From the NCBI GenBank assembly GCA_041674765.1, contig JBAYVE010000011.1:1-41317 (forward strand): a stretch of DNA of 41,317 bases, in the 5' to 3' direction. Positions 1 through 20,961 of this stretch are shown piece after piece; the stretch's first letter is position 1, and each line of letters opens with the position of its first letter. The position numbers and the translations under genes are program-made. The notes beneath the pieces are model-generated. The model did not search any database. It saw only the letters and a list, made by a program, of their open reading frames with translations, and was not told the origin of the DNA. The DNA is from Patescibacteria group bacterium. Its GTDB lineage: Bacteria > Patescibacteriota > UBA1384 > XYA2-FULL-43-10 > 1-14-0-10-43-13.

Positions 1-372
1 AGATACCCAATGAGACATTTTTAGGAGTAATTTTAACGAATAAAAATAGAAATTGCCACCATATCTAAGTTAGGTCTAACATGAAGAGACATTCCATGTA
101 AAGATGCTGAGTATTTTTGTAACAACTCTTTTTGCGAGCTACTTATTGTCTTATAAATCATTTCGGTTATACTATACCTGATAAATGAATTCAGAAAAAA
201 AGAAAATTGATTACTCAAAACTGATTACCAAAATCATCGTATGGTTCATTCTGCTAACGATGGTTTTGTCAGGTATCATGATTTTTTAAACAAAATTGGA
301 GGAAGATCATTGAAATATTCTCTCAAATGAGGATATTTTTGGTAAAATAAATACAACAATAGGAGGATTAAT

Positions 373-2991
373 ATGACAAAGATATCTGGGCTAACTAGTG
401 CCCAAGCTAATGAAAAATTGAAAAAATATGGTTTTAATAAGCTAAACGAAAAAGCTGGTATCTCGCTAATACGGTTATTGGTCAATCAGTTAAAGAAGAA
501 CTACCTAATATATCTCTTTGTATTTACATCCGTCTTATCTTTTATCGTTGGCAAAAACGTTACGGGATGGGCGATCTTATTTATTGTCTTAATGGTTATT
601 GGCACAACCTTCATACAAGAATATCGGGCAGAAAAAGCGATTAGCTCCTTGAAGAATATGATATTACCTTTATCGATTGTTATTAGGAACGGCAGAGAAA
701 GAAGGACGGATTCATCTCTTATCGTCCCAGGAGATATTGTTATTTTGCATTCAGGCGAGAGAATACCGGCAGATGGAGTTATACTTCACGAGACTGAGCT
801 TCGAGTGAATGAATCAGTCTTAACCGGTGAATCTAAAGACATCGCCAAAACAGATAACAAAGATGCGCTCAATAACTTGAATAAAGTTTTTATGGGCACA
901 TTTGTAACTAGTGGGAAAGCAACGTTACAAATTACCCACACTGGAATGAATACAGAATTTGGAAAAATTGCCGGATTAATATCGGAAACCCAAAAAGAGC
1001 TACCGCTTCAAGAAAAGGTAAATAAGATTGTTCAATATATGGCAACTATCGCAATAATTGCCGGAATCTTAGTCGGGGTAATCTCACTCCTAAGAAATGC
1101 TCCTATTACAAACGAGGTGCTTGTTGAGACGATGCTTATCGTGATAGCTATAGTTATTTCTTCCTTTCCAGAGGGGTTCCCCGTTGTCCTCACTTCAACC
1201 CTTGCCTCGGGCGCATATCGTATGGCTCAAAAAAATGCTGTGGTGAACCGAATGTCGACGATTGAAACATTGGGAGAAACAACTGTAATTTGCTCTGACA
1301 AAACAGGAACGATCACCATGGGGGAAATGACTGTAGGCAAAATTATCACAAAAGATCATGAATATAATGTTAGCGGAACTGGTTTTAGCCCAGATGGACA
1401 AATAACTTTAGGTGAAAAAGTACAGGACAAAGAGAGCAATTCTGTGTTATTCGAGCTCCTTAAATGTGGCGTCGTTTGTAATGATGCCAGGATAAGCAAA
1501 GAGGAGGCTGATACTGATTTTCATATCGCTGGCACTCCAACAGAAGCATCGCTCCTTTTCCTTGGCGAAAAAGGAAATATTTATCAAGATGATTTTGACG
1601 CCGAAAGGATTAGTGAAATTCCGTTTAGTTCTGAGCGTAAGATGATGGCTATTTTGATCAACGAAGAGTCCGGCAAAAAAATTTATACCAAAGGAGCACC
1701 GGAAGTAATATTGAAGAAAACAACACATGTTTTAACAATCCACGGAGAAATAGAACTAACCAAAGACCAAAAACAAGAATTCGAAGACAAACTTGACTCA
1801 CTTGCAAAGAACGGTTTTCGAACATTGGCTTTAGCATATAAAAGTACGGACGGGAATAAAATCGAGGGCGAAGAAGGCGGGCTGACATTAATTGGAATCT
1901 TAGGTATTGATGATCCTCCAAGAAGTGATGTAGCAGAAGCGATCGCTGATGCAAACAGAGCAGGCATTAAAGTCAAAATGATTACTGGTGATAGTAAACA
2001 TACCGCAATAGCCATTGCACAACAAATTGGTATATCCAATAGTGTCCTATCCGGATCAGATCTAGATGGAATGAGTGATGATGAGCTAAGGCGAATAATC
2101 GCCGATATCTCAATCTTCGCCAGGGTAAAGCCTGAGCACAAACTTAGAATCGTTGACGCTTTGAAGGATAACGGTGAAATTGTAACCATGACGGGCGACG
2201 GGGTTAACGATGCTCCTGCACTAAAAGAGGCACACATTGGTGTTGCGATGGGAAAGAATGGCACTGATGCGACAAGAGAGGTTGCCGACTTAACACTTAG
2301 AGATGATAACTTTTCGACGATTGTTGAGGCAATCAAAGAAGGTAGGACAATATTTGATAATATTCAAAAGTTTGTTACTTATCAGCTTTCCTGCAACATG
2401 GCTGAACTGACGTTAATTATTCTAGCCGTAGTGCTAGGACTACCTTTGCCCCTGGTGGCATTGCAAATATTATTCATGAATTTAATTACCGATGATCTGC
2501 CGGCGATTAGCTTAGGATTTACTCCCTCGGCTAAGAATATTATGAGAATCAAACCTCGAAAACAATCTGACGTTTTGACAAAGAAACTAATCACATTGAT
2601 TGTTTCACTGGGGCTATCTGCCGGACTGGTGATTCTAGGTGTTTTCGCTTTTTCTTACAAAATTCTTCATCTTGATCTAGATACGTCAAGAACAGCAACG
2701 CTTTTGACTTTAATATTCATCGAAATTACCGCCGCATTTAGTTTTAGGTCATTGAAACAGAGAACCAAACAACTTCCATTTTTTGCTAATAAGTTTTTGG
2801 TTATTGCTTCCGCTATCTCGTTTCTCGCAACCTTAGCAATCGTTTATACGCCATTAAATGCAGTTTTTAATACGAGACCAATACATTTTCTCTGGTGGCC
2901 AATCTTCTTTGTACTTTCGCTGCCTGCGATTTGGCTGATTGATTATATTAAAATCAAGAAAGGCATAATAATCCCAATCGAACAGAAGTAA
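373..2991 (+). CDS. P-type cation-transporting ATPase (P2-like, Ca2+/Mg2+-type)
   Basis: 872 aa. Phosphorylation motif CSDKTGTITM, hinge MTGDGVNDAPALK, PEGFP in a TM helix and about 10 TM segments. RBS AGGAGG lies 8 nt upstream of the ATG. Confidence 0.9.
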   Translation: MTKISGLTSAQANEKLKKYGFNKLNEKAGISLIRLLVNQLKKNYLIYLFVFTSVLSFIVGKNVTGWAILFIVLMVIGTTFIQEYRAEKAISSLKNMILPLSIVIRNGRERRTDSSLIVPGDIVILHSGERIPADGVILHETELRVNESVLTGESKDIAKTDNKDALNNLNKVFMGTFVTSGKATLQITHTGMNTEFGKIAGLISETQKELPLQEKVNKIVQYMATIAIIAGILVGVISLLRNAPITNEVLVETMLIVIAIVISSFPEGFPVVLTSTLASGAYRMAQKNAVVNRMSTIETLGETTVICSDKTGTITMGEMTVGKIITKDHEYNVSGTGFSPDGQITLGEKVQDKESNSVLFELLKCGVVCNDARISKEEADTDFHIAGTPTEASLLFLGEKGNIYQDDFDAERISEIPFSSERKMMAILINEESGKKIYTKGAPEVILKKTTHVLTIHGEIELTKDQKQEFEDKLDSLAKNGFRTLALAYKSTDGNKIEGEEGGLTLIGILGIDDPPRSDVAEAIADANRAGIKVKMITGDSKHTAIAIAQQIGISNSVLSGSDLDGMSDDELRRIIADISIFARVKPEHKLRIVDALKDNGEIVTMTGDGVNDAPALKEAHIGVAMGKNGTDATREVADLTLRDDNFSTIVEAIKEGRTIFDNIQKFVTYQLSCNMAELTLIILAVVLGLPLPLVALQILFMNLITDDLPAISLGFTPSAKNIMRIKPRKQSDVLTKKLITLIVSLGLSAGLVILGVFAFSYKILHLDLDTSRTATLLTLIFIEITAAFSFRSLKQRTKQLPFFANKFLVIASAISFLATLAIVYTPLNAVFNTRPIHFLWWPIFFVLSLPAIWLIDYIKIKKGIIIPIEQK

Positions 2992-3005
2992 ATTCTCAAC
3001 CAATA

Positions 3006-4403
3006 TCAGAAAAATAAGAATGAAATTATAGTAGCAAGTCCTGCTAAAATCATTATTGCAGTGATAATCCAACCAAGAAAAGTAGTTACTGAATGATTAG
3101 TCCATTCACCCATAATTTTTTTATCGCTACTCAACTTAATGATCAAAATGAGAACTATTGGTGCCACTAGGCCATTTATGATTGCGGAATAGATCAGAGC
3201 TTTGATCGGATCAAGGCCGATAAAATTCATCCCCAAGCCGACAAGCATGGAAATAATGATTACGCCATAGAAAGCTGATGCCGTTTTCAGTTTATGGGAC
3301 AACCCTTCTCGCCAACCAAAACTCTCTGAAATAGCATAAGCAGAGGACCCCGCCAATACAGGTACGCCTAGTAAACCTGTTCCAATAATCCCGATAGCAA
3401 AAAGCCAAAAGGCACCGTCCCCAGCGAGCGGTCTTAAAGCCATGGCTGCATCAGACGCAGTATTTATATTTGTTATTCCTTGTTTGTAGAGGGTGGCAGC
3501 ACAGACTGCGATAATAAAGAACATAACGAGATTTGACAGGAACATGCCTGACCAGACGTCTATTCGCATCTTTTTTACTGCAGTCATATCAGTACCCTGT
3601 CTAGAGGCCAAGGTAACCTTTCCTTGAGCGATCTGATCTTCGACCTCCTGTGATGTTTGCCAAAAAAATAAATAGGGCGAAATTGTAGTGCCGAGAATGG
3701 CACAAATAAGCAAAATTTGATCTTTTGAGAAAGTAATGGAAGGTATAACTCCATGCCTAAACGCCTGAGTCCAAGAAAAATCTTGAACAGCGAAAGCTGT
3801 GAATATATAAGCCAACAAAACTAATGCTAGATATTTTAGATATTTAGCATACTTTGTGTAATTTATAAAAATTTGCATTAGTAATGTAACGAGAGTAAAG
3901 GCTACGACTAAAAATATGAATGGTATGTTTGGAGCTAAAAGTTGCACTCCTTTAGCCATTGCGCCTAGATTAGCTCCAATATTGAAAACATTTGAAAAAA
4001 AGAGCAATGCAGCACATACCAATAGTACTCGTCGTGAATAGTGACGACGAATATTTGCTGCAAGACCTCGCCCTGTGACCAACCCTAATCTGGCGCACAT
4101 TTCTTGCACTACGGCCATTAGCGGAAAGGTTAGAGCCGATAACCAAAGCAATTGATTTCCATATTGTGCACCAGTCTGTGAATATGTTGCAATTCCAGAT
4201 GGATCGTCACCAGAGGCACCTGTCGTAAGTCCTGGCCCGAGCCCATGCCAAAAATCCCTGGCATCTTTTAGTGGTCTTTGTTTAGTAACATTCTCGGCGA
4301 ATTTCTGCGTAGCGTTTGTAGCAGCATCTAGGGCTTCTGCAGGTTTGGATATAACATTTTTTATGAACTTATCTGTTTCTTTGTCATTTAGCATATGCTC
4401 CAA
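3006..4403 (-). CDS. Nramp-family divalent metal (Mn2+/Fe2+) transporter, MntH-like
   Basis: 465 aa polytopic membrane protein. N-terminal signature GDDPSGIATYSQTGAQYGNQLLWLSAL matches the Nramp DPGN...QAGAQYGYxLLW block. Confidence 0.8.
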   Translation of the reverse strand: MEHMLNDKETDKFIKNVISKPAEALDAATNATQKFAENVTKQRPLKDARDFWHGLGPGLTTGASGDDPSGIATYSQTGAQYGNQLLWLSALTFPLMAVVQEMCARLGLVTGRGLAANIRRHYSRRVLLVCAALLFFSNVFNIGANLGAMAKGVQLLAPNIPFIFLVVAFTLVTLLMQIFINYTKYAKYLKYLALVLLAYIFTAFAVQDFSWTQAFRHGVIPSITFSKDQILLICAILGTTISPYLFFWQTSQEVEDQIAQGKVTLASRQGTDMTAVKKMRIDVWSGMFLSNLVMFFIIAVCAATLYKQGITNINTASDAAMALRPLAGDGAFWLFAIGIIGTGLLGVPVLAGSSAYAISESFGWREGLSHKLKTASAFYGVIIISMLVGLGMNFIGLDPIKALIYSAIINGLVAPIVLILIIKLSSDKKIMGEWTNHSVTTFLGWIITAIMILAGLATIISFLFF

Positions 4404-4410
4404 TCTATAC

Positions 4411-4436
4411 TACTGTTGATAACAGTATAGTTGGTC
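4411..4436. promoter_or_regulatory. Imperfect palindrome TACTGTTGATAACAGTA just upstream of the Nramp start; candidate operator
   Basis: Inverted repeat ACTGTT-GAT-AACAGT seen directly, 10-35 bp upstream of the start codon at 4403. The regulator is unknown. Confidence 0.25.
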
Positions 4437-4465
4437 TGAAACATATAGTAAATTACTTCTAGTTA

Positions 4466-4945
4466 TTAGCTTCTAACGATCAGATAAAGAAAAATTATAA
4501 ACAAGAGAGCACATAATGATATCGTTAAATATCGGTTGGTACTTGTGGTTTTTTTATTCCCGGTACTATTACTGGCTAGATCTTTTAGCTGCCGAATGCG
4601 ATACAAGTCATTTTTTGCATGAATCCTATAGAAAATTGCTTCTTCGGCAAGATCTTTATTCTTTGGCTCAATTTCTTGTCCGTGCTCTTCAAATGCTCTT
4701 TTTACCAAATCTCTTACTCTTGATTCAGTATTAGTTTCTAGCTCATCCATTAGCTGTTGTTTTCCGATATTATCTCTGGCAAATTGAGTATAGATTGAGT
4801 CGATATATTCTTTCTCTTTTTTTTGAACCACATCAAAGCACTTTATCTCAATTTTCTTCAGCTTATCTGATTCCTCTTTTGATAAAATCTCAGAAAGTTT
4901 ATGTTCGATTGCAAACATTTTAGGCAGCATGTTAGACCGTTCCAT
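4466..4945 (-). CDS. hypothetical coiled-coil protein with C-terminal TM anchor
   Basis: 159 aa. Overlaps the upstream antiporter stop by 14 nt (operon-like coupling). Charged helical body and a hydrophobic C-terminal tail (LTISLCALLFIIFLYLIV). Confidence 0.45.
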   Translation of the reverse strand: MERSNMLPKMFAIEHKLSEILSKEESDKLKKIEIKCFDVVQKKEKEYIDSIYTQFARDNIGKQQLMDELETNTESRVRDLVKRAFEEHGQEIEPKNKDLAEEAIFYRIHAKNDLYRIRQLKDLASNSTGNKKTTSTNRYLTISLCALLFIIFLYLIVRS

Positions 4946-6641
4946 CAGTGCCCCATTGATTAGCTTCTACCTTTTTAAGCAAGTAAGCGATATGACGATC
5001 TCTCTCTTTGGTAAATGCACTTAAATCAAAGCCATGTTTGCTTATCAGAGTACAAGTATGATTTGTTCCAAGATAGTGAGGCATCATAACATAACTTGCC
5101 CCGTCTTTATATAATTCAGTGGCTTCGTCGATTCTCTCAGATTTAACAATAATTATTGCATCACGACTGTTTGCCCTCGCATGCCTCACAATTAAGCTCG
5201 TTGTCTCGAAATCTGTAATGGTCGATATCACCATTTTGGCTTGCTCAAAATTTAAATTATCTAAGAATTCATTATCATCAGCATCGCCATAGTGGCAATT
5301 AACTCCTCGCTCTGATAAGTCATTAACAACCTCAGGATTGAAATCCACAACAAGAAATTTTTTGCCCATTTTTTCAAACGAATCGATAAACTCATGTCCG
5401 ACATGATCAAAACCAAAAAGTATAATCTCGTAGTTTTCACTACTTTTCCGACGGCTGTTTCTGATGCTTTTGCGCTCAAAAATACCCAGGATTGGAGACA
5501 AAAACTTAAATATTTGATCAGAGTATGTAATGTAATAAGTTGATACACCCATAGTAACAAGGCCAACCATAGTTATTAGGGCAACATGATCCAGCGCTAG
5601 ATGTTTATTTTGCAAGCCTAATATCACCAATAAATGAGAAAATTCACTAATTTGAGCAACAGTTACGCCAGCCTTGAAGCTATTCTTTTTATTATGCCCC
5701 AGCAAGCCCATTATAGTCATTATAATTAGCGGACTTGCAATTAAGACAAATAGTGAGAATATCACAACTGGAACGAGCATAGTAGAAAAGCTACCTAGAG
5801 TAATATGAGTTCCGAGGATAACGAACCACAGTATAATAAAGAAATCTCTTAACGGCTTCAGTTTTGAACTAATTTCAAAACTATATGGTGACCCTGCCAA
5901 AGCAATACCAGCAAACAATGCGCCAATTTCGATAGAAAACCCAAATCCTTTGAAAAGTATGGCTATACCTAATCCCCAACTCAGTGAGAAAACAAAAAGA
6001 AGTTCTGTCGATTTTGCAAAGTAAGGAATAATTTTAGGTAAGAGGTATTTGCTAATCAACAGGAGTGGTGCAACGAGAACAGCACCTTTTGTTATGGTTT
6101 TAAGAGCTAATACGGGGATGGTATCATTAGTATTCGCCAAGGCAGCTATACCAATGATAATAAGCATGGCAATAATATCCTGAGTTAAAAGAAAACCAGT
6201 CGTGATCTTACCATATAACCTACCCAGATCTTTTTTATCTGAGAGAAGTTTTAAAATTATAATAGTGCTGCTAAATGTCAGAGCCAAGGCAATATATAAT
6301 GATACGACATTTGAAAATCCTATCGCTTTACCGATTAGGAATCCGAGGCCAGAGGTGAGCAGTACTTTTCCTATACCCGTGATTAAGGAGACCTTCCCGA
6401 CTTCTTTTATAATTTTTGGTGAGAGACTTAGACCTATAATAAAGATAAGCAATGCAATGCCTAATTGAGAAAATGTCTCAATTTCCTTTTGTGATTTCAA
6501 AATATTAAGGAAATAAGGCCCGGCTATAAGACCAGTAACAATATGTCCAATAATTAGCGGCTGTTTCAATAAAAACATTATTCCTGATACAATAGTAGCA
6601 ACAACGAGAACTAATCCTAGTTCAATGAAAATATTTTCCAT
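4932..6641 (-). CDS. CPA2-family cation:proton antiporter with C-terminal RCK/TrkA-N domain (KefB-like)
   Basis: 569 aa. N-terminal region of about 380 aa has multiple TM helices typical of a Na+/H+ exchanger. C-terminal ILFGFDHVGHEFIDSFEKMGKKFLVVDFNPEVV is a Rossmann TrkA-N fold. Confidence 0.85.
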   Translation of the reverse strand: MENIFIELGLVLVVATIVSGIMFLLKQPLIIGHIVTGLIAGPYFLNILKSQKEIETFSQLGIALLIFIIGLSLSPKIIKEVGKVSLITGIGKVLLTSGLGFLIGKAIGFSNVVSLYIALALTFSSTIIILKLLSDKKDLGRLYGKITTGFLLTQDIIAMLIIIGIAALANTNDTIPVLALKTITKGAVLVAPLLLISKYLLPKIIPYFAKSTELLFVFSLSWGLGIAILFKGFGFSIEIGALFAGIALAGSPYSFEISSKLKPLRDFFIILWFVILGTHITLGSFSTMLVPVVIFSLFVLIASPLIIMTIMGLLGHNKKNSFKAGVTVAQISEFSHLLVILGLQNKHLALDHVALITMVGLVTMGVSTYYITYSDQIFKFLSPILGIFERKSIRNSRRKSSENYEIILFGFDHVGHEFIDSFEKMGKKFLVVDFNPEVVNDLSERGVNCHYGDADDNEFLDNLNFEQAKMVISTITDFETTSLIVRHARANSRDAIIIVKSERIDEATELYKDGASYVMMPHYLGTNHTCTLISKHGFDLSAFTKERDRHIAYLLKKVEANQWGTDGTV

Positions 6642-6701
6642 TTAATTATTCCTTTCATAAGTCATTATAGAGCAAAAATAACAAACGATAAAGGAGCAAT
6701 A

Positions 6702-6851
6702 ATGTACTATATATTGGCAATATTTATTGCCTTCGGTAAATATTTCAAAAGATTGATTAAAATCGATTCTCAACTTGACGAGCTTGAGAAAAGGCTTGAT
6801 AAAAGAGAGGCAAAAATAAAATCTCTTGAGAAACGTCAAAAAAGTTAAATA
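6702..6851 (+). CDS. small membrane-anchored coiled-coil peptide (49 aa)
   Basis: ATG preceded by AAGGAG at a 5-nt spacer. Sequence MYYILAIFIAFGKYF + KRLIKIDSQLDELEKRLDKREAKIKSLEKRQKS. Competes with the antisense ORF 6642..6839, which looks spurious. Confidence 0.35.
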
Positions 6852-6968
6852 TTTGAATGAAGTGCAGTGAATCTAAAACATTGTTTTGTAATCGTTTCTT
6901 GATCCATGCAGTGAATGATCGTCTCAAACATTGTCTTTGAGGTAAATTATGTTATATTATGCATATAT

Positions 6969-7187
6969 ATGAATAGTCAAAATACCGATAAAATTTTAAA
7001 AGATCTAGGTGATAGATTAAAAAAAGCCCGAGAAGAAGCCAAGCTTACGCAGTCAGAAGTTGCCAAAGCGACCGGTATGAATGTCAATTACTATGCTCAA
7101 ATCGAACGAGGCGAGATTAATACTTCGTATGTGAAAGTGCATGCTATCGGCAAAGCCCTAAATATCAAACTGCTCGACATTTCTTAA
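6969..7187 (+). CDS. XRE-family helix-turn-helix transcriptional regulator
   Basis: LTQSEVAKATGMNVNYYAQIERGE is a Cro/C1-type HTH. The internal Met at 6969 is preferred over the ORF-track start at 6915. Operator-like repeats lie upstream. Confidence 0.7.
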   Translation: MNSQNTDKILKDLGDRLKKAREEAKLTQSEVAKATGMNVNYYAQIERGEINTSYVKVHAIGKALNIKLLDIS

Positions 7188-7217
7188 TATCATAGCGGTG
7201 TATGCCAAAGGAAAATA

Positions 7218-7850
7218 ATGATTGAGATAAAATATTCGCTAAATACATTTATTCCTTCCGATAATCCTGATGATTATGTCTATGATATCAAGGGAGATAT
7301 TTTTTGGTCGGAAATTACTGATTCAGGCAAAGAAATAAATCAAAAAGTCGGGACTTTGACGGCCTACTTGGTGGATATTGTTTCAGCTATGAATGATAGG
7401 GTGTCTCTACTGGATGTAATGGATGAACATAGTGATAACGTTTACCGATATTACGAGCTTCTTATTGATAAAAAAGAAAATGACTTCAAAGAAGATTTAA
7501 TTGAAGGACAGGAAAGACCGACAAACTTTAATCTGTTAATTATCGATCGCATAGAAATAGCTCCAAAATATCGAGGCAGGAATATCGGTTTTGCTGCAAT
7601 TAGTGACTTAATCAGAGTATTCGGTCATAGTTGCGGATATGTTGCAGCCGAATCATTTCCACTGCAGTTTGAGGCAGGAAATGAAAATAATGAATCCACT
7701 GACAAGGAATTAGCTACACTAAAACTAAAAAACTATTACTCTAAACTAGGCTTCAAAAACATCAAAGGCACCGATTTTATGCTTCTCAATCTTGATTATT
7801 TCAACCCACCAAAAGTTGAATTGGTTGATGGGAAGTTTGAGCTCGTATAA
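7218..7850 (+). CDS. GNAT-like acetyltransferase-fold protein
   Basis: 210 aa. IDRIEIAPKYRGRNIGFAAISDLI resembles GNAT motif A (R/Q-x-x-G-x-G/A). Starts 30 nt after the XRE gene. Confidence 0.55.
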   Translation: MIEIKYSLNTFIPSDNPDDYVYDIKGDIFWSEITDSGKEINQKVGTLTAYLVDIVSAMNDRVSLLDVMDEHSDNVYRYYELLIDKKENDFKEDLIEGQERPTNFNLLIIDRIEIAPKYRGRNIGFAAISDLIRVFGHSCGYVAAESFPLQFEAGNENNESTDKELATLKLKNYYSKLGFKNIKGTDFMLLNLDYFNPPKVELVDGKFELV

Positions 7851-7885
7851 TTTATAGATTACGGATTCTGGAGATATCGTCAAAT

Positions 7886-7924
7886 ACAAAAAAGCAGGTA
7901 GTCAACGCCCTCCTGCTTTTTTGT
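7886..7924. terminator. bidirectional hairpin terminator (AGCAGG...CCTGCT + T-run, with an A-run on the other side)
   Basis: Seen directly in AAAAAAGCAGGTAGTCAACGCCCTCCTGCTTTTTTG, downstream of the GNAT gene. Confidence 0.4.
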
Positions 7925-8197
7925 ATTTCTTGCTCTTTTGAACTATGAGTATTTTTTACGATTGCAAAGAGTCGAGCCAGCCAATTTTTTTGTAGTCTTG
8001 CTTGTGCTTCCGCTCTTGAGAGCTGCTGACGCCTTTGTTGCAATTTTTTTAGTTGTTCGCACCGAGTTAATTTTAGCCATTGTTGTGCCTTTAGCGATAT
8101 TATACTGATAACCGAGGATCGACCGTACGCTGCCGCCTCCATGCTAGCTTTTCGCCAGCACAGCGACCACTCAATTCCATTTTATTTCTGACTTTAC

Positions 8198-8263
8198 ATT
8201 TTGTCAATATTAATTACATTTAGTGTAAAAACTATTGACAAAGTCGAACTAATTGGATATATT
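8198..8263 (+). promoter_or_regulatory. sigma70-like promoter TTGACA-N17-TATATT overlapped by a 9-bp inverted repeat (operator-like)
   Basis: TTGACA at 8235-8240 and TATATT at 8258-8263. TTGTCAATA (8198-8206) and TATTGACAA (8233-8241) are exact reverse complements. Confidence 0.5.
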
Positions 8264-8297
8264 TAGATTAATAAAAATAATCCGGAGGTGTTTTTTC

Positions 8298-8993
8298 ATG
8301 AACACTTTTGCAGAAAAAATTAAAAATTTGAGACAGCAAAGAGGACTTAATCAGGCTCAAGTTGCTGATCAGATTAATATTTCCAGACCATCATATATTG
8401 ATGTAGAGAAAGGTGAAAAAGAGTTAACTTTTTCACAATTAAAACAATTGTCTGGTATTTTTCAAATTTCCCTAGAAGAATTAATTTTTGATACTGCTCA
8501 GGTTTCGGCAAATGACTTTAATTTAGAAAAATATAAACAAATTGTTTTAAATTGCTTACAGTATGGAGCTGCTGAGGATGGTAAAATCACAAAAACTAAA
8601 CTTGCAAAATTAGCATATCTAGCTGATTTCGCCTGGTTTTACAATCATCTTCAGCCAATGAGTGGGCTTGCTTACCGGAGAATTCAGCAGGGACCAGTTC
8701 CAGATCAATACTTTCGAATAATTGATGAATTATATGAAGACGGAACCATTGCCATTGAACACAAAGGTACGGCACACCTAATTAAGCTTGAACTAATTGA
8801 AACTCCTTCAACAGATAAATTGGATTCGGAAGAATTAACTCTAATTAAAAAAATTGCTAAAAATTGGAGAGAGAAGAGCACGCAGGAAATTGTAAACTTT
8901 ACTCATAGCCAATTACCATGGAAGATCTGCCGTCAAGGCGAGATTATTCCTTATGAATTGATAACTCAGGAAGAACCGGAGCATGTCTACTAG
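8298..8993 (+). CDS. XRE-HTH + Panacea (DUF4065) domain protein, antitoxin-like
   Basis: N-terminal LNQAQVADQINISRPSYIDVEKGE is an HTH. C-terminal KLAKLAYLADFAW...RRIQQGPVPDQYF matches the DUF4065/Panacea signature. Start taken at the Met with a GGAGG RBS, because the ORF-track start at 8253 overlaps the promoter. Confidence 0.7.
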   Translation: MNTFAEKIKNLRQQRGLNQAQVADQINISRPSYIDVEKGEKELTFSQLKQLSGIFQISLEELIFDTAQVSANDFNLEKYKQIVLNCLQYGAAEDGKITKTKLAKLAYLADFAWFYNHLQPMSGLAYRRIQQGPVPDQYFRIIDELYEDGTIAIEHKGTAHLIKLELIETPSTDKLDSEELTLIKKIAKNWREKSTQEIVNFTHSQLPWKICRQGEIIPYELITQEEPEHVY

Positions 8994-9390
8994 TGGTGGG
9001 GAAAATTTTGAGGTGACTATTGAAGAATTTGCTGGTAGGCATTTTGTTAAGCAGTTTCATAAAAAATATAAAAAGGCTTGGGATATTACAGAAAATGCTA
9101 TAATCGCCGAGCTTAAAAGAGTCGATAATATCATCGGTTGCAACGATTATGTTGAAATTATCAAAAGCAATTGCGAGACAGTTCTTATTAAACTCTATTT
9201 TAAAATCGCAGGCACCAACGAATCAAAGAAGAGTTCTGGAAATAGGGCTATTGTTCTTGCAGACATGAAAAACAGAAACTGTAAGATTTTATTAGTATAT
9301 TCAAAGAACAATATCTGTCCACCAAACGAGACGCAAAAATGGCAAACGCTAGTTAGAGAGAATTACCAAGATCTGCAGAATTATCTTTAG
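8983..9390 (+). CDS. putative toxin partner of the Panacea protein (family unassigned)
   Basis: 135 aa. Overlaps the upstream stop by 11 nt. Basic, with GNRAIVLADMKNRNCKILLVYSK reminiscent of a RelE/ParE-fold C-terminus. Assignment rests on gene context only. Confidence 0.45.
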   Translation: MSTSGGENFEVTIEEFAGRHFVKQFHKKYKKAWDITENAIIAELKRVDNIIGCNDYVEIIKSNCETVLIKLYFKIAGTNESKKSSGNRAIVLADMKNRNCKILLVYSKNNICPPNETQKWQTLVRENYQDLQNYL

Positions 9391-9468
9391 CCTCGAACCC
9401 AAGCATAAATCGGTTCAGCCAGTCCAAAAGGTGTTCGATAGAAAGTGCGTTGAGGCTACCAAAATAAG

Positions 9469-9496
9469 AACTTCACTTCGGTGGAGTTTTTATTTT
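9469..9496 (+). terminator. rho-independent terminator (8-bp stem, UUCG loop, T-run)
   Basis: AACTTCAC-TTCG-GTGGAGTT followed by TTTATTTT. Confidence 0.6.
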
Positions 9497-9677
9497 GACA
9501 ATCGGCAACTCCATTTTCGTGATTCACAGGACTCCGCAACTCACTTTAGCTGAAATTCGGACGCGAGATCGCGATTGTTGAAAATGACCTGTTTTTTAAA
9601 TTTCTCCAAAGATTTTTTATTCGGAGCACGTATGATAAGGACGGAATAAAAAATAATGAACATAGGAAAGGAGAAAC

Positions 9678-10025
9678 ATGAGTTGGCTATTAGCAATAGT
9701 AGTAGGCGGCGTAGTTGGGTGGCTGTATAGCTATGCGGTTCGGCCTGAACGAAGAATTATTTGGGCCGACATTGTTGCAGGAGCTGTAGGCGGCTTGTTA
9801 GGAGTTTGGTTTTTCGCAAATCTCTTGGGAATTGGTTTCCCTCTGACAACGGCAGTTGGCACTTTTACTTTGCTCGGTATGATTTGGGCAATCGTTGGAA
9901 GTATTATTGTAGCTGCAATCGTGCAGGCTTTGATTCCTGAAAGAAGCGTACAGACGGGACGTGCTTATTACGAAGAAACTGAAAGAAGACGCAAAGACGA
10001 AGAAGATCGTCTTCACCGCCGATAA
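9678..10025 (+). CDS. GlsB/YeaQ/YmgE-family small stress membrane protein with charged C-tail
   Basis: 115 aa. Gly-rich TM helices (LLAIVVGGVVGWL..., IVAGAVGGLLGVWFF). RBS GGAAAGGAG upstream. Confidence 0.65.
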   Translation: MSWLLAIVVGGVVGWLYSYAVRPERRIIWADIVAGAVGGLLGVWFFANLLGIGFPLTTAVGTFTLLGMIWAIVGSIIVAAIVQALIPERSVQTGRAYYEETERRRKDEEDRLHRR

Positions 10026-10033
10026 CTAGAAAA

Positions 10034-10063
10034 TTAACGCCCCGCCAGGGGCGTTAATTTTCT
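10034..10063. terminator. bidirectional GC hairpin TTAACGCCCC-GCCA-GGGGCGTTAA + TTTT
   Basis: 10-bp perfect stem overlapping the stops of the convergent genes. The core AACGCCCC...GGGGCGTT recurs at 35992-36031. Confidence 0.7.
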
Positions 10064-11721
10064 ACCGGTAGAGAATTCACCGCAAAAAGAAGCATTTTTA
10101 ACTCTTTGACAGGTTCGCTTCTGTTACTTGAAACATTGCCATCAGGGGATAGCTCCCATTCATCATAAATAGGACTCTCGCCCTGAGCTCGAATTTTCAA
10201 AGTATTTTCCGGGCTCCAGAAGATCGAAATCTTAAATAACTGATCCTTGAATTCCATCTGTAATTTCATATCATGTTTGAATATTTTTAGATCCTCAAAA
10301 AGCCGGGCCAAAACCGTTCTATCTAATTCATTTGGAAGTGTATCTGCTTTGATCAATTTGATAAAGGGCCGGAGGATTTTAATAAATCTAATAGCAGCTG
10401 TGTTGGCCTTGAACTTTTCTGCCGAAGTTTGGCTTTTGTTGCTATCGTCTGTGCTGCTCTCTCCACTATCTGTTTCTTTTGTTGTTTTTTTCTCATGTTC
10501 GCCCTCGGACTCCAGATCTGGCCCCTCGTCTTCCTCCTCATCTTCTACAGATGTAACGATCTGATCGATATTTTGCAGTATCTCTCTACAGATTTCATCC
10601 CATAAAGGCTTAGAACCCGGAATCAAGGACACTTGATTTGCAAGATAGATAGTATTTAGGAAATCAACCAAACCCTCCCGATAATCAACTTCGCCATCTT
10701 CGTCAACCCGAAGTAACAGATCATTTGCACTTTCTATAAAAATTGAGAGAAAGCCTTCATAAACTTGACTCTTTTCTGGAAATCTTTGGTGAAAATCATT
10801 GAAAACAGTCTCCTCTATCCTTTCGGCTGCCAGTTCTGAATTTTCTGGATTTAATATCGCTGCTAATATATCTTGCATATACTGTTTGATAGCAGGATCA
10901 AAGATAACTTCCTGATAAATAGCCCTATCTTCGATCATTCCAATTCTCTCTTCCTCTTCTGGAAAATTTAAATAAAATAATTTCTCTGCCCTTTCATAGA
11001 GAGATTCCCTGCTTCCTTTTGGAGCGAGGGGATTTCCATTCAGGAAGAGCTCATACTCCTCAACAAGACCAGGATGCTCGGATTGATTCGATTCGCTATA
11101 AATATCGTCATCAGGCCCTAAGCCATGCTCTTCCCGCCAATCACCTACCAATTTCTCTACCAAAGCACGAAACCTAGGATTATTGATAATAGTCGGACAC
11201 TCCAAATCGTTCAGCAAAGACAGCGGAATGTCTCCGTCTTTTTTGAGGATAAATAGACTTGGCGGCTCGTTCACGATATATGGATTTTCTTCGGGATCTT
11301 TTATCTCTCTACGAGATCCCCTTTCTTCACGCTCCACAGCCGCGAAGGTTTTATCAACACGTCCTCCAAAAAGCCGCATTGTTTCTTCAAGGGACGGCAA
11401 TTCAAAATGTTCAGCTAAAAGGCGATCGGACGAAAGACCTTGCCGGCCCGAAACATCTCCTCTCGGCTTCGAATACGTCATCCGCAAATATTCTTCTGGC
11501 TGACATCCGTATTTTTCACGGATTTTCTCCCTGATTTTTTGATTTTCTTTGGCCGTCAATTGGCTGGCAAACCGTTCCCATGCCGCAGCAAAGTTGATTT
11601 GATCAGAAGGCAAATTGGGTAAATCGGTATATTGCGAGAGATCTGTCTCATCCTGACTTACAAATCCATCATCTTGGCCGGGCGGTCCCTGCAATGAGCC
11701 ACTCTCCCTAAATGCTGACAT
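10054..11721 (-). CDS. hypothetical acidic protein (555 aa), compositionally GC-richer than its neighbours
   Basis: Long ORF with an E/D-rich stretch (EDEEEDEGPDLESEGEHEKK). No recognisable motif. Confidence 0.55.
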   Translation of the reverse strand: MSAFRESGSLQGPPGQDDGFVSQDETDLSQYTDLPNLPSDQINFAAAWERFASQLTAKENQKIREKIREKYGCQPEEYLRMTYSKPRGDVSGRQGLSSDRLLAEHFELPSLEETMRLFGGRVDKTFAAVEREERGSRREIKDPEENPYIVNEPPSLFILKKDGDIPLSLLNDLECPTIINNPRFRALVEKLVGDWREEHGLGPDDDIYSESNQSEHPGLVEEYELFLNGNPLAPKGSRESLYERAEKLFYLNFPEEEERIGMIEDRAIYQEVIFDPAIKQYMQDILAAILNPENSELAAERIEETVFNDFHQRFPEKSQVYEGFLSIFIESANDLLLRVDEDGEVDYREGLVDFLNTIYLANQVSLIPGSKPLWDEICREILQNIDQIVTSVEDEEEDEGPDLESEGEHEKKTTKETDSGESSTDDSNKSQTSAEKFKANTAAIRFIKILRPFIKLIKADTLPNELDRTVLARLFEDLKIFKHDMKLQMEFKDQLFKISIFWSPENTLKIRAQGESPIYDEWELSPDGNVSSNRSEPVKELKMLLFAVNSLPVEN

Positions 11722-11860
11722 ATCCCTCCTACTAACTTATTGAGTTTCAAGTTCATTGTACTCTTCCTGGGAGAGCTTATCAAAGTTAGATCCTTGCTAT
11801 GTGCCGTTGAAAAAATCAAAAAAGTAGACAAAAAATATTCTCACAAGAGCCTCCTTACCG

Positions 11861-11889
11861 TTTACTAATGAACAGGTTTATGCTAAAAT
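11861..11889 (+). promoter_or_regulatory. candidate promoter TTTACT-N17-(TGc)TAAAAT upstream of the tRNA-Gly complex
   Basis: -35 at 11861-11866. Extended -10 TGCTAAAAT at 11881-11889. Confidence 0.4.
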
Positions 11890-11920
11890 ATCTTTTGTTG
11901 AGAGGATATTGTCCTGACGT

Positions 11921-11948
11921 TCGTATAGCGGCTATTATGCGACCCTTC
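11921..11948 (+). pseudogene. 5' fragment of tRNA-Gly (equivalent to nt 8-35), lacking the acceptor 5' strand
   Basis: 28/28 identity to 11985-12012 of the intact tRNA. The match ends exactly between anticodon nt 35 and 36. Confidence 0.7.
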
Positions 11949-11971
11949 TCCATCCTCCGTAGCAGTAGTAG
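11949..11971 (+). repeat. left arm of the inverted repeat flanking the intact tRNA-Gly
   Basis: TCCATCCTCCGTAGCAGTAGTAG. Reverse complement of 12053-12074 with a 3-nt insertion. Confidence 0.7.
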
Positions 11972-11977
11972 AAATTG

Positions 11978-12052
11978 GCGGGTATCGTATAGCGGCTATT
12001 ATGCGACCCTTCCAAGGTTGAGATGCGGGTTCGACTCCCGCTACCCGCTCCA
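11978..12052 (+). tRNA. tRNA-Gly (anticodon UCC), CCA encoded
   Basis: Acceptor GCGGGTA/TACCCGC. Anticodon stem CGACC/GGTTG with loop CTTCCAA. T-arm GCGGG-TTCGACT-CCCGC. Near-identical in layout to the E. coli glyT-type tRNA. Confidence 0.9.
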
Positions 12053-12074
12053 TACTACTACTGCGGAGGACGGG
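12053..12074 (+). repeat. right arm of the inverted repeat flanking the intact tRNA-Gly
   Basis: TACTACTACTGCGGAGGACGGG pairs with 11949-11971. Confidence 0.7.
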
Positions 12075-12115
12075 CAAGGTTCTAGATGCGGGTTCGACTC
12101 CCGCTACCCGCTCCA
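12075..12115 (+). pseudogene. 3' fragment of tRNA-Gly (equivalent to nt 36-76 incl. CCA), with a 1-nt indel in the anticodon stem
   Basis: CAAGGTT(CT)AGATGCGGGTTCGACTCCCGCTACCCGCTCCA is a direct copy of 12013-12052. It starts exactly where the 5' fragment ends. Confidence 0.7.
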
Positions 12116-12314
12116 AAGAAAAAAAGTTGTCATCCGACCCGTTAGGGTTATGACAATAAACGAGTGCTACAAAGGAAAAACTGGCTTAAGTTCCAAGAAA
12201 CATAATTGGACTTTAGGCCAGTTTTTTTGTTGTCTTAGCCTTTCACCCTTAGAAAAATTGGGAACCTTTTACGCTCGTCAAACACAAAATACCTTATATT
12301 ATCGGTTTAATTCC

Positions 12315-13673
12315 TTACCTCAAGCTGATTTTTCTGTCATTCAGGATGATCTTAGCGTTCAGGCAGGATAATAGCTCTCGTTTTTCTTCTTTTGTTCCAT
12401 TTTTGAGCAGATATTTGGCGAACTCTCGGGGATTGATCTGAGGTAGCATCATGTCTTTGCTGATCGCCGAATTCAGCACTCCTTGGGTAAAGTTCTGATA
12501 TCTATAGACCTCCTGCCTAATTCTCTCATGGGCTTCGATCCTCTCAATCGGTATATGGTCAATAATTTCGAGCAATTGTCCGAGGAGTTCGTCTTCTCTT
12601 ATGTATGGGTTCTTGCAAACCAGGTTCCTCGCTTGGGTGCAGTGATAGTAGATATATACCCTCGAAGTTCCATTCTTGAACTTTTTGATCTTTCTCTCTG
12701 CTGTCACCCCAGAGCCGCAATAGCCGCAAGTTAGTAGTCGATTAAAGTTGAATTCGATCGTTCCTGGCTGTGATTTCGGAACAACCGCCAATCTTTCCTG
12801 AACATCCTCGAAGAGTTGCCTTGAAATGATCGGCTCGTGATGGGCGGTATACCAGACACCGCTATTCTTGGGATATTCATATATTCCGCAATAATAAGGA
12901 TTGTTTAATGTCCGATAAATCGAGCTTAAGGTCATAATTTTGCCCGATCTTGTCTGAAAACCCTTGTCTATAAGCCAGTGATAGATATCTCTTCCGCTCC
13001 AGCCGTTAAAATATACCTTTTCAAACACCTCTTTGATTACAGGGGCTCGTACGGGGTCGAGAACTATCGTTCTCATGCCCCTTGGGGAAGTTAAATCCGG
13101 TTCATAGCCAAGAGGTGCTTTTGTTGGTCGATAACCCATCTCGCATTTGGCTTTCATGCCCCTTTTTACATTTTCCCCTCGGTGGTCGTTTTCCAGCTTG
13201 GCTTGCGAGCAAAGAATCATCAGAAGGAACTTTTCGTTCGGTGAATTTGAGAATCTTTGTCCGTGAGTCCGTATCTCTCTTAGGCACCCATTGTCCATTA
13301 GATCTACGACCGACCCAAGGTCGCCGGCATTTCTGCTCAACCTGTCGGGAGCCCAAGACAAGATACCATCAAACTTTTTGGCAGCAAGATCCTTGATGAG
13401 CTGGTTAAAAACTGGCCTCTGGCTCGACTGCTTGGCCGAGTGGCTCTCTTTTCGAATGTCGGCGATCAGCAGGTTCTCTTTCTGTGCCTGTTCGAGCATC
13501 TCCTTTATCTGGGAATCAATCGAAAGTGCCTGCCTTTCGTCATCCTCGCTCGATTTTCTAGCGTAAAGGCAATACCGGACCGGAAGCTCCTTGGCCTCAG
13601 CTTTGTTCACTGGTTTACCACCAATCACCTGTGGTAATACGATCGGTGTTGTATTAGTGTAGCTTACATCCAT
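12315..13673 (-). CDS. large serine recombinase (resolvase-type catalytic domain + recombinase domain + zinc ribbon)
   Basis: N-terminal RYCLYARKSSEDDERQALSIDSQ is a serine-recombinase catalytic motif. C-terminal CGYCGS...CTQARNLVCKNPY is a Cys-rich Zn ribbon. 452 aa. Confidence 0.85.
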   Translation of the reverse strand: MDVSYTNTTPIVLPQVIGGKPVNKAEAKELPVRYCLYARKSSEDDERQALSIDSQIKEMLEQAQKENLLIADIRKESHSAKQSSQRPVFNQLIKDLAAKKFDGILSWAPDRLSRNAGDLGSVVDLMDNGCLREIRTHGQRFSNSPNEKFLLMILCSQAKLENDHRGENVKRGMKAKCEMGYRPTKAPLGYEPDLTSPRGMRTIVLDPVRAPVIKEVFEKVYFNGWSGRDIYHWLIDKGFQTRSGKIMTLSSIYRTLNNPYYCGIYEYPKNSGVWYTAHHEPIISRQLFEDVQERLAVVPKSQPGTIEFNFNRLLTCGYCGSGVTAERKIKKFKNGTSRVYIYYHCTQARNLVCKNPYIREDELLGQLLEIIDHIPIERIEAHERIRQEVYRYQNFTQGVLNSAISKDMMLPQINPREFAKYLLKNGTKEEKRELLSCLNAKIILNDRKISLR

Positions 13674-13760
13674 TTGTCCCTCCTCCCTCGGTTAGCTAGT
13701 TAAGCAAGAGGGACAATACCGCCAAACCCATCTAAAGTCCAGCGATTTTTCGACGTAAAT

Positions 13761-14901
<1,141 letters not shown>

Positions 14902-15225
14902 AAAACATATGATTTATATAAGGGTTTTTACGAGCTGATTGATCACTTTCCCAAAAAGTCTCGGGAAGTACTTATAAATAAAATAGAGGTGCTAATTCTT
15001 GAGCTTCTGGAATTACTTTCATCAGCCGAATTTTCTCCTGCAAGCACTAAAATCCAGTCGCTGAGTCAGGCTAGTATCAAGCTTGATTTCTTAAAGCTGC
15101 TCTTCCGGATGACGTATGAATTCAAAATTATTAACCAGCCAAAATATTTGGAACTAGAAAAGCATCTCCAAGAAATTGGAAAGATGCTTGGTGGCTGGAT
15201 CAAGTCCCTTAGAGGATAAAGCGAT

Positions 15226-15350
15226 ACTACCACGGGACACCGAGACGGAGCCGAAGTTCGGATTGGCATTGTCGGGATTGTTGTTGTCGAGCTTCGGATC
15301 GTCGTCGTTGAGGTTCAGGTACGGAACGTTGCCGTTCTCGGTGACCGCAC
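15226..15350 (-). repeat. DGR template repeat (TR), sense on the minus strand
   Basis: 125 bp matching 15707-15831. At the mismatches this copy carries A on the minus strand, mostly in AAC codons. The 3' segment CGGCTCCGTCTCGGTGTCCCGTGG is adenine-free and identical in both copies. Confidence 0.85.
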
Positions 15351-15685
15351 AATTTTTGCTGATCTTCTTCTGTTTCTTCGGATGGTTTTAAATCAAAACA
15401 TCCTGTAGCCCGACTTCGGGCAATTTTTTAAGCGAGCGATATTATTCTCGACATAAAAATCAGCAAGGAGTATCTGCTTTATCCTTTTTCTTGACAAGCC
15501 ATAGCCGGTCAAGGAAATGCAGGGAAACAGAGATTTCTCTCGCTTAAGCCGTAGCCGAAGGCAAGGTACTCTCATATTCTAAAGAACATATTATTGGTAA
15601 AAAGAAAAGCGGCCGCTGCGAGAATTCGCAACGACCGCCTGACGGCGGGTAACCAAGGGGACAATGATCCGATAGGACCAAAGCC

Positions 15686-16330
15686 TCAAGAACCCCAGGG
15701 TAATTGACTCCCACGGGACACCGAGACGGAGCCGTAGCCCGGATTGGCATAGACGGGATTGTCGTCGTCGAGCTCCGGATCGCCGTCGCCGAGGCGCAGG
15801 TACGGAACGTTGCCGTACTCGGTGACCGCACCGGGGAAGTCCATGTAGGATTTCTGCAACTGCGGTTTGCCCCAGTAGAGGAAGGCAGTGAGGCCATCCT
15901 TGGGGATCCCGAGCTGCTCGAGCGGGTCGTGGCTGGCACGGATATCCTTGGGAGCACGGCCTTTGTATTTCTGACCGAGCTGGCCCTGCACGATGCAGAG
16001 CCCTTCCGGAGTCGTCACGCCCTCGAAGAGAGTGAAAGTATCCGGATCGGCCCAGATGTTGACGCCACCGGCCTCGCAGAGGAAGCGATCTCGTACGCCG
16101 TAGTGTACGAGCCAGACTTCATTGAGACCGATGCCGGCCAGTTCGACCGAATAGCCGAACTGCTGTACCAGGTTCATGGCGTCATCGAGGAACTTGGCCT
16201 CTTCGACGCCGACCTCTCCGTGGATGCCGTAGGCGATCAGGCAACGCGCCTGCGCTTCGAGCACTTCGGACAGGTTCACCGGCAGAGCCGGCGGAAACTG
16301 CAGAGCAGGGATCACAACCTGTGTACCCAT
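15686..16330 (-). CDS. DGR target protein with C-terminal variable region (C-type-lectin/FGE-like fold suspected)
   Basis: GC-rich ORF. Start taken at MGTQVV (AAGGAG 6 nt upstream) rather than the ORF-track 16375. The VR encodes ...EYGNVPYLRLGDGDPELDDDNPVYANPGYGSVSVSRGS at the extreme C-terminus. Confidence 0.75.
   Translation of the reverse strand: MGTQVVIPALQFPPALPVNLSEVLEAQARCLIAYGIHGEVGVEEAKFLDDAMNLVQQFGYSVELAGIGLNEVWLVHYGVRDRFLCEAGGVNIWADPDTFTLFEGVTTPEGLCIVQGQLGQKYKGRAPKDIRASHDPLEQLGIPKDGLTAFLYWGKPQLQKSYMDFPGAVTEYGNVPYLRLGDGDPELDDDNPVYANPGYGSVSVSRGSQLPWGS
15707..15831 (-). repeat. DGR variable repeat (VR) at the 3' end of the target gene
   Basis: Differs from the TR at 13 TR-adenine positions (to C/G/T), plus one non-A difference (15254/15735) and one at the repeat edge (15229/15710). 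Confidence 0.85.
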
Positions 16331-16543
16331 GGTGACTCCTTTTGGTGCCCACCGGCTCAATGTCCTTTTGGGCATAGCTGGTTACCTTATTGAAAGATAA
16401 ACAAGTATGCCCAAAGCAAACTACAGTTCCATAATTATGAAACGCTAATTATTATACCATAATGATAAAAATAAATCAATAGTTTGAGCGTATTTATGAT
16501 CAGTAATCTTTTAATAGTACACCTATTATGCTAAAGTATAAGT

Positions 16544-20763: not shown

Positions 20764-20961
20764 TTAATTTGCGTTAAATAACAAAAAATCCGCACCATGT
20801 ATGTGCAGATTATCTCTGAGTTCGACCCTTCTCAAATCAAAAAACACATACATTTACCACAACCTTAAAAAGGTTGATCGATTTACGTGTTTTTGATTTT
20901 CTGGGGTTATTCCGTACTCAGCAAAAACGATTTTCTATTAAATTGTAATTTCATTTTACTC

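Follow-up and report, generated by a model that had tools for sequence, protein, structure and literature searches.

How does a complete tRNA gene come to lie inside the anticodon loop of another copy of the same gene? This question is raised by a tRNA-Gly locus at 11921-12115 of the window, the whole stretch of 41,317 nucleotides under analysis, which constitutes the right 41 kb of a 94.6-kb contig (JBAYVE010000011.1) in a metagenome-assembled genome of the Patescibacteria, or Candidate Phyla Radiation (CPR). An earlier note on this DNA, made from the letters alone, had described the locus as a cassette resembling a miniature inverted-repeat transposable element (MITE) or, alternatively, as an attachment (att) site scar of a tRNA-targeting integrative element. 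The structure is real and unusual, featuring a tRNA-gene disruption with a self-supplied replacement at a mobile-element hot spot. With moderate confidence, it is read here as a tRNA-gene replacement scar, in which a hairpin-flanked tRNA unit entered a loop of the cognate gene and assumed the function of that gene. Three analogous nestings in further CPR genomes suggest a recurrent, undescribed way of replacing tRNA genes. Literature searches retrieved no description of a tRNA nested in its cognate tRNA in bacteria.

An intact tRNA-Gly within a broken copy

All parts of the nested locus are read on the forward strand. At its centre lies an intact tRNA-Gly(UCC) at 11978-12052, which was the single tRNA called by ARAGORN and which matched the Rfam tRNA model RF00005 with 58.7 bits. 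Reading of the sequence revealed an encoded CCA, the acceptor pairs G1-C72, C2-G71 and G3-C70, and U73. No second tRNA was recognized in the nested region by ARAGORN or Rfam, even at E<=10.

The other copy is represented by two fragments outside the insert. The outer 5' fragment at 11921-11948, corresponding to tRNA nucleotides (nt) 8-35 with the D-arm, the 5' anticodon stem and C32-C35, is identical to 11985-12012 of the inner gene in 28/28 nt, and 12084-12115 is identical to 12021-12052 in 32/32 nt, from the T-arm through CCA. In the local alignment, the outer 3' fragment covers 12075-12115 (nt 36-76) and departs from the inner gene only once, by GGTTCTAGAT versus GGTTGAGAT, and the 31-mer from the T-arm to CCA has 2 occurrences versus 0 expected. 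The intact inner gene and the split of the outer one between nt 35 and 36, both described in the earlier note, were thereby reproduced, with one lesion in the 3' fragment to be added.

The split is filled by an insert of 126 bp. It starts with the left hairpin arm (IR-L) at 11949-11971, TCCATCCTCCGTAGCAGTAGTAG, with the bulge TAG at 11960-11962, followed by the unpaired 6-nt spacer AAATTG at 11972-11977 before the inner tRNA, and it ends with a TA spacer and the right hairpin arm (IR-R) at 12053-12074, the arm itself occupying 12055-12074. The inverted repeat TCCATCCTCCG(TAG)CAGTAGTAG pairs with CTACTACTGCGGAGGACGGG over ~20 pairs, the imperfections read from the sequence being a 3-nt bulge, one A.C mismatch and a terminal U.G, and the repeat motif gave 3 matches within 3 mismatches versus 0.32 expected. 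The 126-nt unit (11949-12074) is predicted to fold into a stem with a cloverleaf cap, at -59.4 kcal/mol (z = -4.9) as RNA and -27.9 kcal/mol (z = -3.8) as DNA, and the larger transcript is also predicted to fold in the nested way. The view that the unit has terminal inverted repeats of ~20 bp and carries its own replacement tRNA was in agreement with both the arms and the fold.

The outer tRNA-Gly copy is a dead pseudogene and the inner copy is the sole functional tRNA, because nt 1-7 of the outer copy are missing and its anticodon stem is damaged, with G43 replaced by CT. A clean break is seen at nt 7/8; CTGACGT, the 7 nt that precede 11921, is unable to pair with TACCCGC, leaving the outer copy devoid of a 5' acceptor strand as stated before, and the outer halves joined in silico were not recognized as a tRNA by ARAGORN. 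A displaced 5' acceptor strand, GCGGGTA, was found nowhere else in the window, and an island insertion at nt 7/8 as the origin of the left-hand region is therefore without evidence. The intron mode of ARAGORN was tried as well and yielded only chimeras of the inner 5' half and the outer 3' half.

The nested structure is no assembly artefact, since two independent Logan contigs match 54-12006 and 12087-14295 at 100% identity and end only inside the repeats, since the arms are imperfect, and since analogues exist in unrelated assemblies.

Hairpin-clamped and nested tRNAs in other loci

Leader-trailer pairing was scored for 116 distinct tRNAs in ~1.5 Mb of CPR DNA, from loci that are designated here by L numbers, and the median helix energy was -9.5 kcal/mol. 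The outliers were tRNA-Arg(TCG) of L066 (-38.1 kcal/mol), the window tRNA-Gly (-36.7), tRNA-Cys of L065 (-31.7) and tRNA-Lys of L066 (-24.6), with tRNA-Leu(TAA) of L084 (-18.6) and the window tRNA-His (-18.1) ranking lower. Cognate outer tRNA halves outside the helix were found in four cases, namely the window Gly, L066 Arg, L065 Cys and L084 Leu.

In L066, a perfect 13-bp repeat abuts the intact tRNA-Arg(TCG), and the D-loop that harbours the unit belongs to a second tRNA-Arg(TCG), which becomes a perfect tRNA for ARAGORN once the insert is removed in silico, so that insertion into an intact gene is directly visible there. The outer tRNA-Cys of L065 is split at 34/35 in the anticodon loop and has a decayed 3' half, and the outer tRNA-Leu of L084 is split at the boundary of D-loop and stem, where further outer tRNA shells seem to be present. 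Among the nested cases, the split positions and the arm sequences vary, and the outer copies range from intact to heavily decayed, which fits their status as pseudogenes. What the four cases have in common is a complete tRNA between two helix arms, placed in a loop of the resident cognate gene, which is either already dead or expected to decay.

These cases bear on a first alternative, according to which nothing was inserted and the outer fragments are template-switch or partial-duplication copies of the single resident tRNA-Gly. They would stem from a local rearrangement during replication or repair, the locus being prone to recombination and highly transcribed, and the arms would have arisen in situ without any mobile cassette. 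Such an origin would be in line with the 100% identity of inner and outer segments over 28 + 32 nt, with the tRNA remnants that are common around recombinase loci, and with a clear local duplication on the same contig, a tandem pseudo-tRNA-Lys(CTT) including a copy of the upstream flank. It gives no reason for the exact span of the 20-bp inverted repeat from the junctions to the inner tRNA, and the arms are separated from the acceptor stem by a 6x6-nt internal loop instead of being contiguous with it as fold-back priming needs. Moreover, the acceptor stems differ between the inner and outer copies of L065, L066 and L084, and the inner copies there are therefore not local duplicates; judged from these differences, they are probably foreign. 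On balance, local rearrangement is regarded as an unlikely origin of the window locus. The more specific candidate of a fold-back (quasi-palindrome) extension of the acceptor stem as the source of the arms was rejected, as unpaired spacers intervene and the discriminator is bulged.

Several further tRNA-linked structures were observed. The window tRNA-His at 26561-26637 (within 26542-26663) is flanked by the leader-trailer helix TAGGTACTATT / AATAGTACCTA, extendable to ~16 pairs, with no recognisable outer tRNA halves around it, and a long hairpin at ~26660-26705 follows before tRNA-Arg(TCG). The 70 recombinase loci taken from viral contigs (L138-L207) contained 26 further tRNAs and no new hairpin-nested case, and one of these loci bears tRNA-Ser remnants on both sides. 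On the minus strand of L088, upstream of tRNA-Gly(GCC), 11560-11605 (GCGGGTATCGTAagcGGTTACCCGC) joins tRNA nt 1-12 almost directly to the acceptor 3' strand and is the scar, similar to a mini-helix, of a tRNA-Gly copy that has lost its middle. By the intron mode of ARAGORN, tRNAs with 240-270-nt interruptions of the anticodon loop were uncovered in L005, L060, L073 and L075, which probably represent the reported group I introns of Patescibacteria tRNAs. In the apparently non-CPR metagenome contigs L131, L132, L134 and L136, tRNA-Gly is followed by a 3' remnant with ~30 nt inserted in the T-loop (GCGGGTTCGA...tCCCCGCTACCCGCTCCA), which is a different kind of tRNA-linked scar.

The serine recombinase and its junction at the CCA end

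The earlier note had pointed to a large serine recombinase ~200 bp downstream, and the gene is indeed present at 12315-13673 on the minus strand, convergent with the tRNA and encoding 452 aa with the Pfam domains Resolvase, Recombinase and Zn_ribbon_recom. Its proximity gives rise to a second alternative, the att-site scar, in which IR-R and IR-L would be P and P' of a palindromic attP, the tRNA halves would be B and B', and the 126 bp would be a minimal integrated element or the remnant of one. The ~22-bp arms do meet the tRNA halves exactly at the palindrome centre, the anticodon stem is itself a dyad, and a recombinase of this kind is the direct neighbour in two of the four nested cases. 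Whether this enzyme cuts in an anticodon loop can be judged from its relatives.

The protein search gave at least 8000 homologues and at least 591 confirmed stretches in species-representative genomes, from which 80 loci were kept (L003-L082), most of them named Patescibacteria or CPR and some bearing generic or other names. Very often, a tRNA on the opposite strand was located 75-360 bp beyond the recombinase stop codon in these 80 loci, the adjoining tRNAs being those for Ser, Asp, Asn, Arg, Gly and Trp. The conserved island end starts directly after CCA, independent of the tRNA identity: one island-end motif was found after three tRNA-Ser isoacceptors and another after Ser, Asp and Arg, and the Gly group, the window included, shares AAGAAAAA.AGTTG.CAT..GACCCGTTAGGGT. 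The tRNA 3' strands at these islands differ yet match their own 5' strands, which places the crossover at the CCA end or no more than a few bases from it, leaving the tRNA undisturbed by integration. This very large CPR serine recombinase family thus targets the CCA end of many different tRNA genes.

In the window, the conserved left island end occupies 12116-12160 on the forward strand, with AAGAAAAAAAG followed by the hairpin TTGTCAT..ATGACAA at 12127-12156. Homology to L083 and L084 is uninterrupted from the recombinase gene (int) to 12084-12089, inside the outer 3' fragment, so the outer copy is the tRNA where the island sits. In L083, L084 and L088, where the recombinases are 78-80% identical, the tRNA adjoining the island is an ordinary, uninterrupted tRNA-Gly(GCC), which answers the suggestion made beforehand to look for uninterrupted tRNA-Gly loci. 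As islands of this family join the CCA end, the recombinase accounts for the 12115/12116 junction and not for the split at 35/36.

Further details argue against the att-site scar. The int gene lies outside 11949-12074 and beyond the outer 3' fragment, no common central dinucleotide is in register (C35/TC at the left, GG/C36 at the right), and a 126-bp circle would be an implausible substrate. The conserved island-end motifs are unrelated to the arms, and the islands with 78-80% identical recombinases share the post-CCA sequence but nothing arm-like. Split positions vary among the nested cases, falling in the anticodon loop or the D-loop, and the cassettes of L065 and L084 are 5-9 kb away from the recombinase. 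A scar left by the neighbouring recombinase at 35/36 is accordingly considered very improbable.

Some observations on the recombinase family stand apart from this question. The family is very large and well conserved (50-60% identity) across CPR lineages, as seen in the window, L003-L082 and L138-L207, and a module consisting of ParB-methylase, small and large terminase, DUF4352 and recombinase is recurrent with it. Several viral contigs hold two recombinase copies. In comparison with L083 and L084, the hairpin at 12127-12156, a conserved structure, displayed compensatory changes in L083 (TGCCAT...ATGGCA), and a terminator or a part of the recombinase site are its candidate roles.

Inverted-repeat arms and the search for related cassettes

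If the recombinase did not place the unit in the anticodon loop, a transposase might have. In a true MITE, which is a non-autonomous transposon, the terminal repeats would serve as binding sites for a transposase encoded elsewhere, and the tRNA would be carried by chance. The 126 bp are a typical size for such an element, the terminal inverted repeats reach both junctions, and all cassette helices start with CC(C) and end with (G)GG. In addition, the arms of L065 tRNA-Cys (16343-16453, CCCGCACAAAAATCT) and L066 tRNA-Lys (5196-5320, CCCGCACCAAAATTT) are identical in 13/15 positions, unlike all other arm pairs.

Other observations speak against such an element. Target-site duplications are absent in all four nested cases (window, L065, L066 and L084), and the window flanks, ...CCCTTC and CAAGG..., contain no direct repeat. 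No transposase domain was present among the annotated open reading frames (ORFs) of the 41-kb window, the coverage of the genome being 41 kb + 10 kb. The search for the inverted repeat in other DNA, which had been proposed as a check, gave no second arm copy in the window, in the 1.5 Mb of CPR loci or in the viral contigs, where the 23 matches to an arm 15-mer were all by chance in coding sequence with no tRNA nearby. A scan of metagenome contigs, keyed on the tRNA-Gly 3'-end sequence and not on the arms, likewise returned no homologous nested unit. The arms are also unrelated between two cassettes of the same genome. On these grounds, the designation MITE-like was not sustained, and a true MITE is considered quite unlikely.

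Two search designs produced candidates that were rejected. Pairs of T-arms 30-60 nt apart in viral contigs were ordinary tandem tRNA genes only, and the tRNA-Gly 3' end with a second T-arm within 20-50 nt gave 8 matches in metagenome contigs, none of them a cassette homologue; these were ordinary tRNA-Gly genes and 3' remnants, on contigs that are GC-rich and apparently non-CPR. No further tRNA-Gly fragment was found in the window or in the 10-kb flanks of L083 or L088.

Arm sequences are unrelated between most cassettes, including the window Gly and His. As the two hairpin-flanked tRNAs of the window have unrelated arms, the arms appear to matter as structure and not as a protein-binding sequence.

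A proposed replacement scar and its possible expression

Arms that act through pairing could also be explained by a functional RNA arrangement, either an intron-like insert or a split tRNA in which the helix joins the outer halves after excision of the inner tRNA. The predicted fold of the transcript is exactly nested, the outer tRNA of L066 is otherwise intact, and introns at 35/36 are known from Patescibacteria tRNAs (PMC13011429). Several of the non-Watson-Crick helix positions are G.U on the tRNA-sense strand, a count that is biased because the helices were defined by RNA pairing rules. Against this stands the state of the window outer copy, which has no 5' acceptor strand and a broken anticodon stem, so that its halves form no cloverleaf, as those of L066 alone do; the outer copies of L065 and L084 are decayed. 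No ribozyme or intron family was detected by Rfam at E<=10 over 11800-12300, where only 51 nt of the insert are non-tRNA, and the base before the split is C35, whereas a group I 5' splice site follows a U. The bulge-helix-bulge motif is missing as well, with no 3-nt bulges separated by 4 bp and the anticodon loop turned into a 4x3 internal loop. A conserved intron-like precursor was looked for in relatives and was not seen. A functional split or intron-containing tRNA is, on this evidence, scarcely credible.

The reading preferred here, that of a tRNA-gene replacement scar, can be put as a sequence of events. A compact unit, with an intact tRNA-Gly(UCC) between the arms of a ~20-bp helix, would have been inserted as DNA between nt 35 and 36, in the resident tRNA-Gly's anticodon loop, the target being the same gene whose CCA end is the attachment point of the island. 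The inner copy would now supply tRNA-Gly(UCC), and the 5' acceptor strand of the outer pseudogene would have disappeared later, through a further break at nt 7/8. In reduced CPR genomes, most tRNA genes are presumably essential and present in one copy; an insertion into such a gene can persist only if it comes with a replacement, and inner and outer identities therefore match.

In the transcript, the arms are proposed to pair as a leader-trailer helix that keeps the inner cloverleaf apart from the identical flanking half-copies, and RNase P and 3' trimming would release the inner tRNA. Preventing mispairing with the half-copies would be the simplest present-day role of such a helix, the risk being illustrated by the ease with which the intron mode of ARAGORN builds the inner/outer chimera. 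Transcription may start from a promoter-like site at 11861-11889 on the forward strand (TTTACT-17-TAAAAT with a TG-extended -10), a consensus match only, which could drive the whole nested unit. It may terminate at 12169-12233, where a terminator-like 28-nt inverted repeat followed by a T-run lies between the tRNA unit and the convergent recombinase gene; this inverted repeat is kept in L083 and L084, and a simple terminator scan gave it no score.

Several points weigh against the replacement scar. No insertion mechanism or enzyme was identified. The nested cases number only four, and as all loci were fetched through the recombinase, the sample is biased by ascertainment as well as small. The window inner and outer copies are identical in 60/60 positions outside the junction, as would be expected from a local duplication or gene conversion no less than from a recent import. 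A homologous Gly cassette did not turn up at any other site in the scanned DNA, so that neither covariation in the helix nor a pair of filled and empty alleles is available. Two of the four nested tRNAs adjoin the recombinase, so a link with it is conceivable, and the near-identity of the L065 Cys and L066 Lys arms is awkward for a purely structural role.

A wider proposal is put forward tentatively and is considered rather unlikely: CPR bacteria may harbour tRNA-gene cassettes that move horizontally and form a class of their own, as yet undescribed, in which a helix with essential pairing and arbitrary sequence clamps a complete tRNA. Such cassettes would insert in the exposed D or anticodon loops of the resident cognate gene, assume its function and leave nested, decaying shells, without a classical transposase or the adjacent serine recombinase. 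A structured single-stranded DNA or an RNA intermediate would be one possibility for their movement.

Genomic context

To the right of the tRNA lies a phage-like island of ~8.8 kb, from 12116 to ~20930, with synteny to L083 and L088. Its right end is approximate, the homology with L088 fading near 20917-20932. The island encodes the recombinase, a diversity-generating retroelement (DGR), DUF4352, large and small terminase and ParB-methylase, and this module also adjoins the closest recombinases, those with 78-80% identity. The 11-mer CGACCCTTCTC, present at 11940 and 20823, was considered as a direct repeat bracketing cassette and island and was rejected, its right copy being inside island sequence conserved in L088.

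The DGR is located on the minus strand at 13761-16375, with the reverse transcriptase at 13761-14901, the template repeat at 15226-15350, the variable repeat at 15707-15831 and the target gene at 15686-16375. The 125-nt repeats differ in 15 positions, 13 of which are at adenines of the copy proximal to the reverse transcriptase. The variable copy is situated at the 3' end of a 229-aa gene, and the reverse transcriptase is spread over two ORFs that overlap, owing to a frameshift or a sequencing error.

The region to the left of the tRNA contains ORFs without homologues (ORFans) and a toxin-antitoxin-like pair. At 8253-9390, in a stretch that is rich in ORFans and slightly higher in GC, an antitoxin-like gene of the HTH-SocA/Panacea type precedes a 135-aa ORF; this is possibly another mobile or defence segment. 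Searches for an empty site through neighbouring genes gave nothing: the 555-aa ORFan protein of the left neighbour had no homologue except itself, and the 613-aa protein encoded at the window end had no record. On the same contig, ~3 kb left of the window, L208 holds a second large serine recombinase of 529 aa (6590-8179), whose 3' end overlaps tRNA-Glu(TTC). In the stretch just upstream, 6300-6660, tRNA-Lys(CTT) is preceded by a tandem pseudo-copy composed of nt 1-26, a foreign hairpin and part of the T-arm, and this pseudo-tRNA-Lys carries a copy of the tRNA-Lys upstream flank.

Implications and comparison with known systems

Four nestings that involve four different tRNAs would point to horizontal tRNA-gene replacement in CPR, a sizeable and little-understood branch of the bacterial tree, and to a process leaving datable shells of the old genes, and units that are themselves mobile would represent a new kind of selfish element needing no coding capacity. 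There are practical consequences as well. Nested loci break short-read assemblies, as in the Logan contigs, and give chimeric tRNA predictions in intron mode, and the pseudo-halves might enter counts of genes or att sites by mistake. The CCA-end preference of the recombinase family may help recombinase mining.

Islands and prophages that integrate in tRNA genes restore the gene from their own end, with the anticodon loop, the T-loop and the 3' end as sublocations; the classical ones supply the 3' part only, leave a direct repeat at both ends and use tyrosine integrases. The window locus resembles them as a mobile-element hot spot with partial tRNA copies nearby, in which function is kept by incoming sequence and an island sits at the outer tRNA 3' end. 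It differs in that the loop of the old gene contains an entire tRNA together with hairpin arms, and in that a large serine recombinase acts at the CCA end with no tRNA fragment at the far island end.

The Dada DNA transposons of fishes insert specifically in tRNA and snRNA genes, where their insertions cluster around the anticodon and the acceptor/D-arm boundary, nt 8-13 (PMC8869645). The same two regions are broken here, at 35/36 and 7/8, and the D-loop is the site in L066 and L084. Dada elements are eukaryotic, encode their own transposase, generate 6-7-bp target-site duplications and use multicopy targets, none of which is seen here, and they lack a replacement tRNA.

Among the archaeal split and intron-containing tRNAs, the halves of Nanoarchaeum carry complementary leaders, introns are framed by bulge-helix-bulge motifs, and the tRNA-Trp intron contains a box C/D RNA. 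In the window, too, a 5' half is followed by a sequence complementary to the one before the 3' half, and a functional RNA is nested in the interruption. The bulge-helix-bulge is absent here, the window outer halves form no tRNA and outer copies decay elsewhere; the host is a bacterium and is not known to possess a splicing endonuclease. Closer in lineage are the group I introns inserted after U35, at 35/36, within tRNA-Asn as well as tRNA-Asp of Patescibacteria (PMC13011429). They share the phylum and this unusual site with the window locus, which is distinguished from them by a 126-nt insert with 75 nt of tRNA and no ribozyme core, by the C before the split and by an outer gene that cannot be reconstituted.

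With respect to the arms, the counterpart would be the leader-trailer helix itself. RNase III processing stems of leader and trailer flank rRNAs and some tRNAs in polycistronic precursors. Like them, the arms would form a ~20-bp leader-trailer helix around a stable RNA, with idiosyncratic sequence and conserved pairing; unlike the window helix, these stems are known for rRNA operons and not for a single tRNA in a cognate pseudogene. The combination of a complete replacement tRNA, idiosyncratic arms and insertion into the loops of the cognate gene appears, from this comparison, to set the nested tRNA-Gly apart from every one of these systems.

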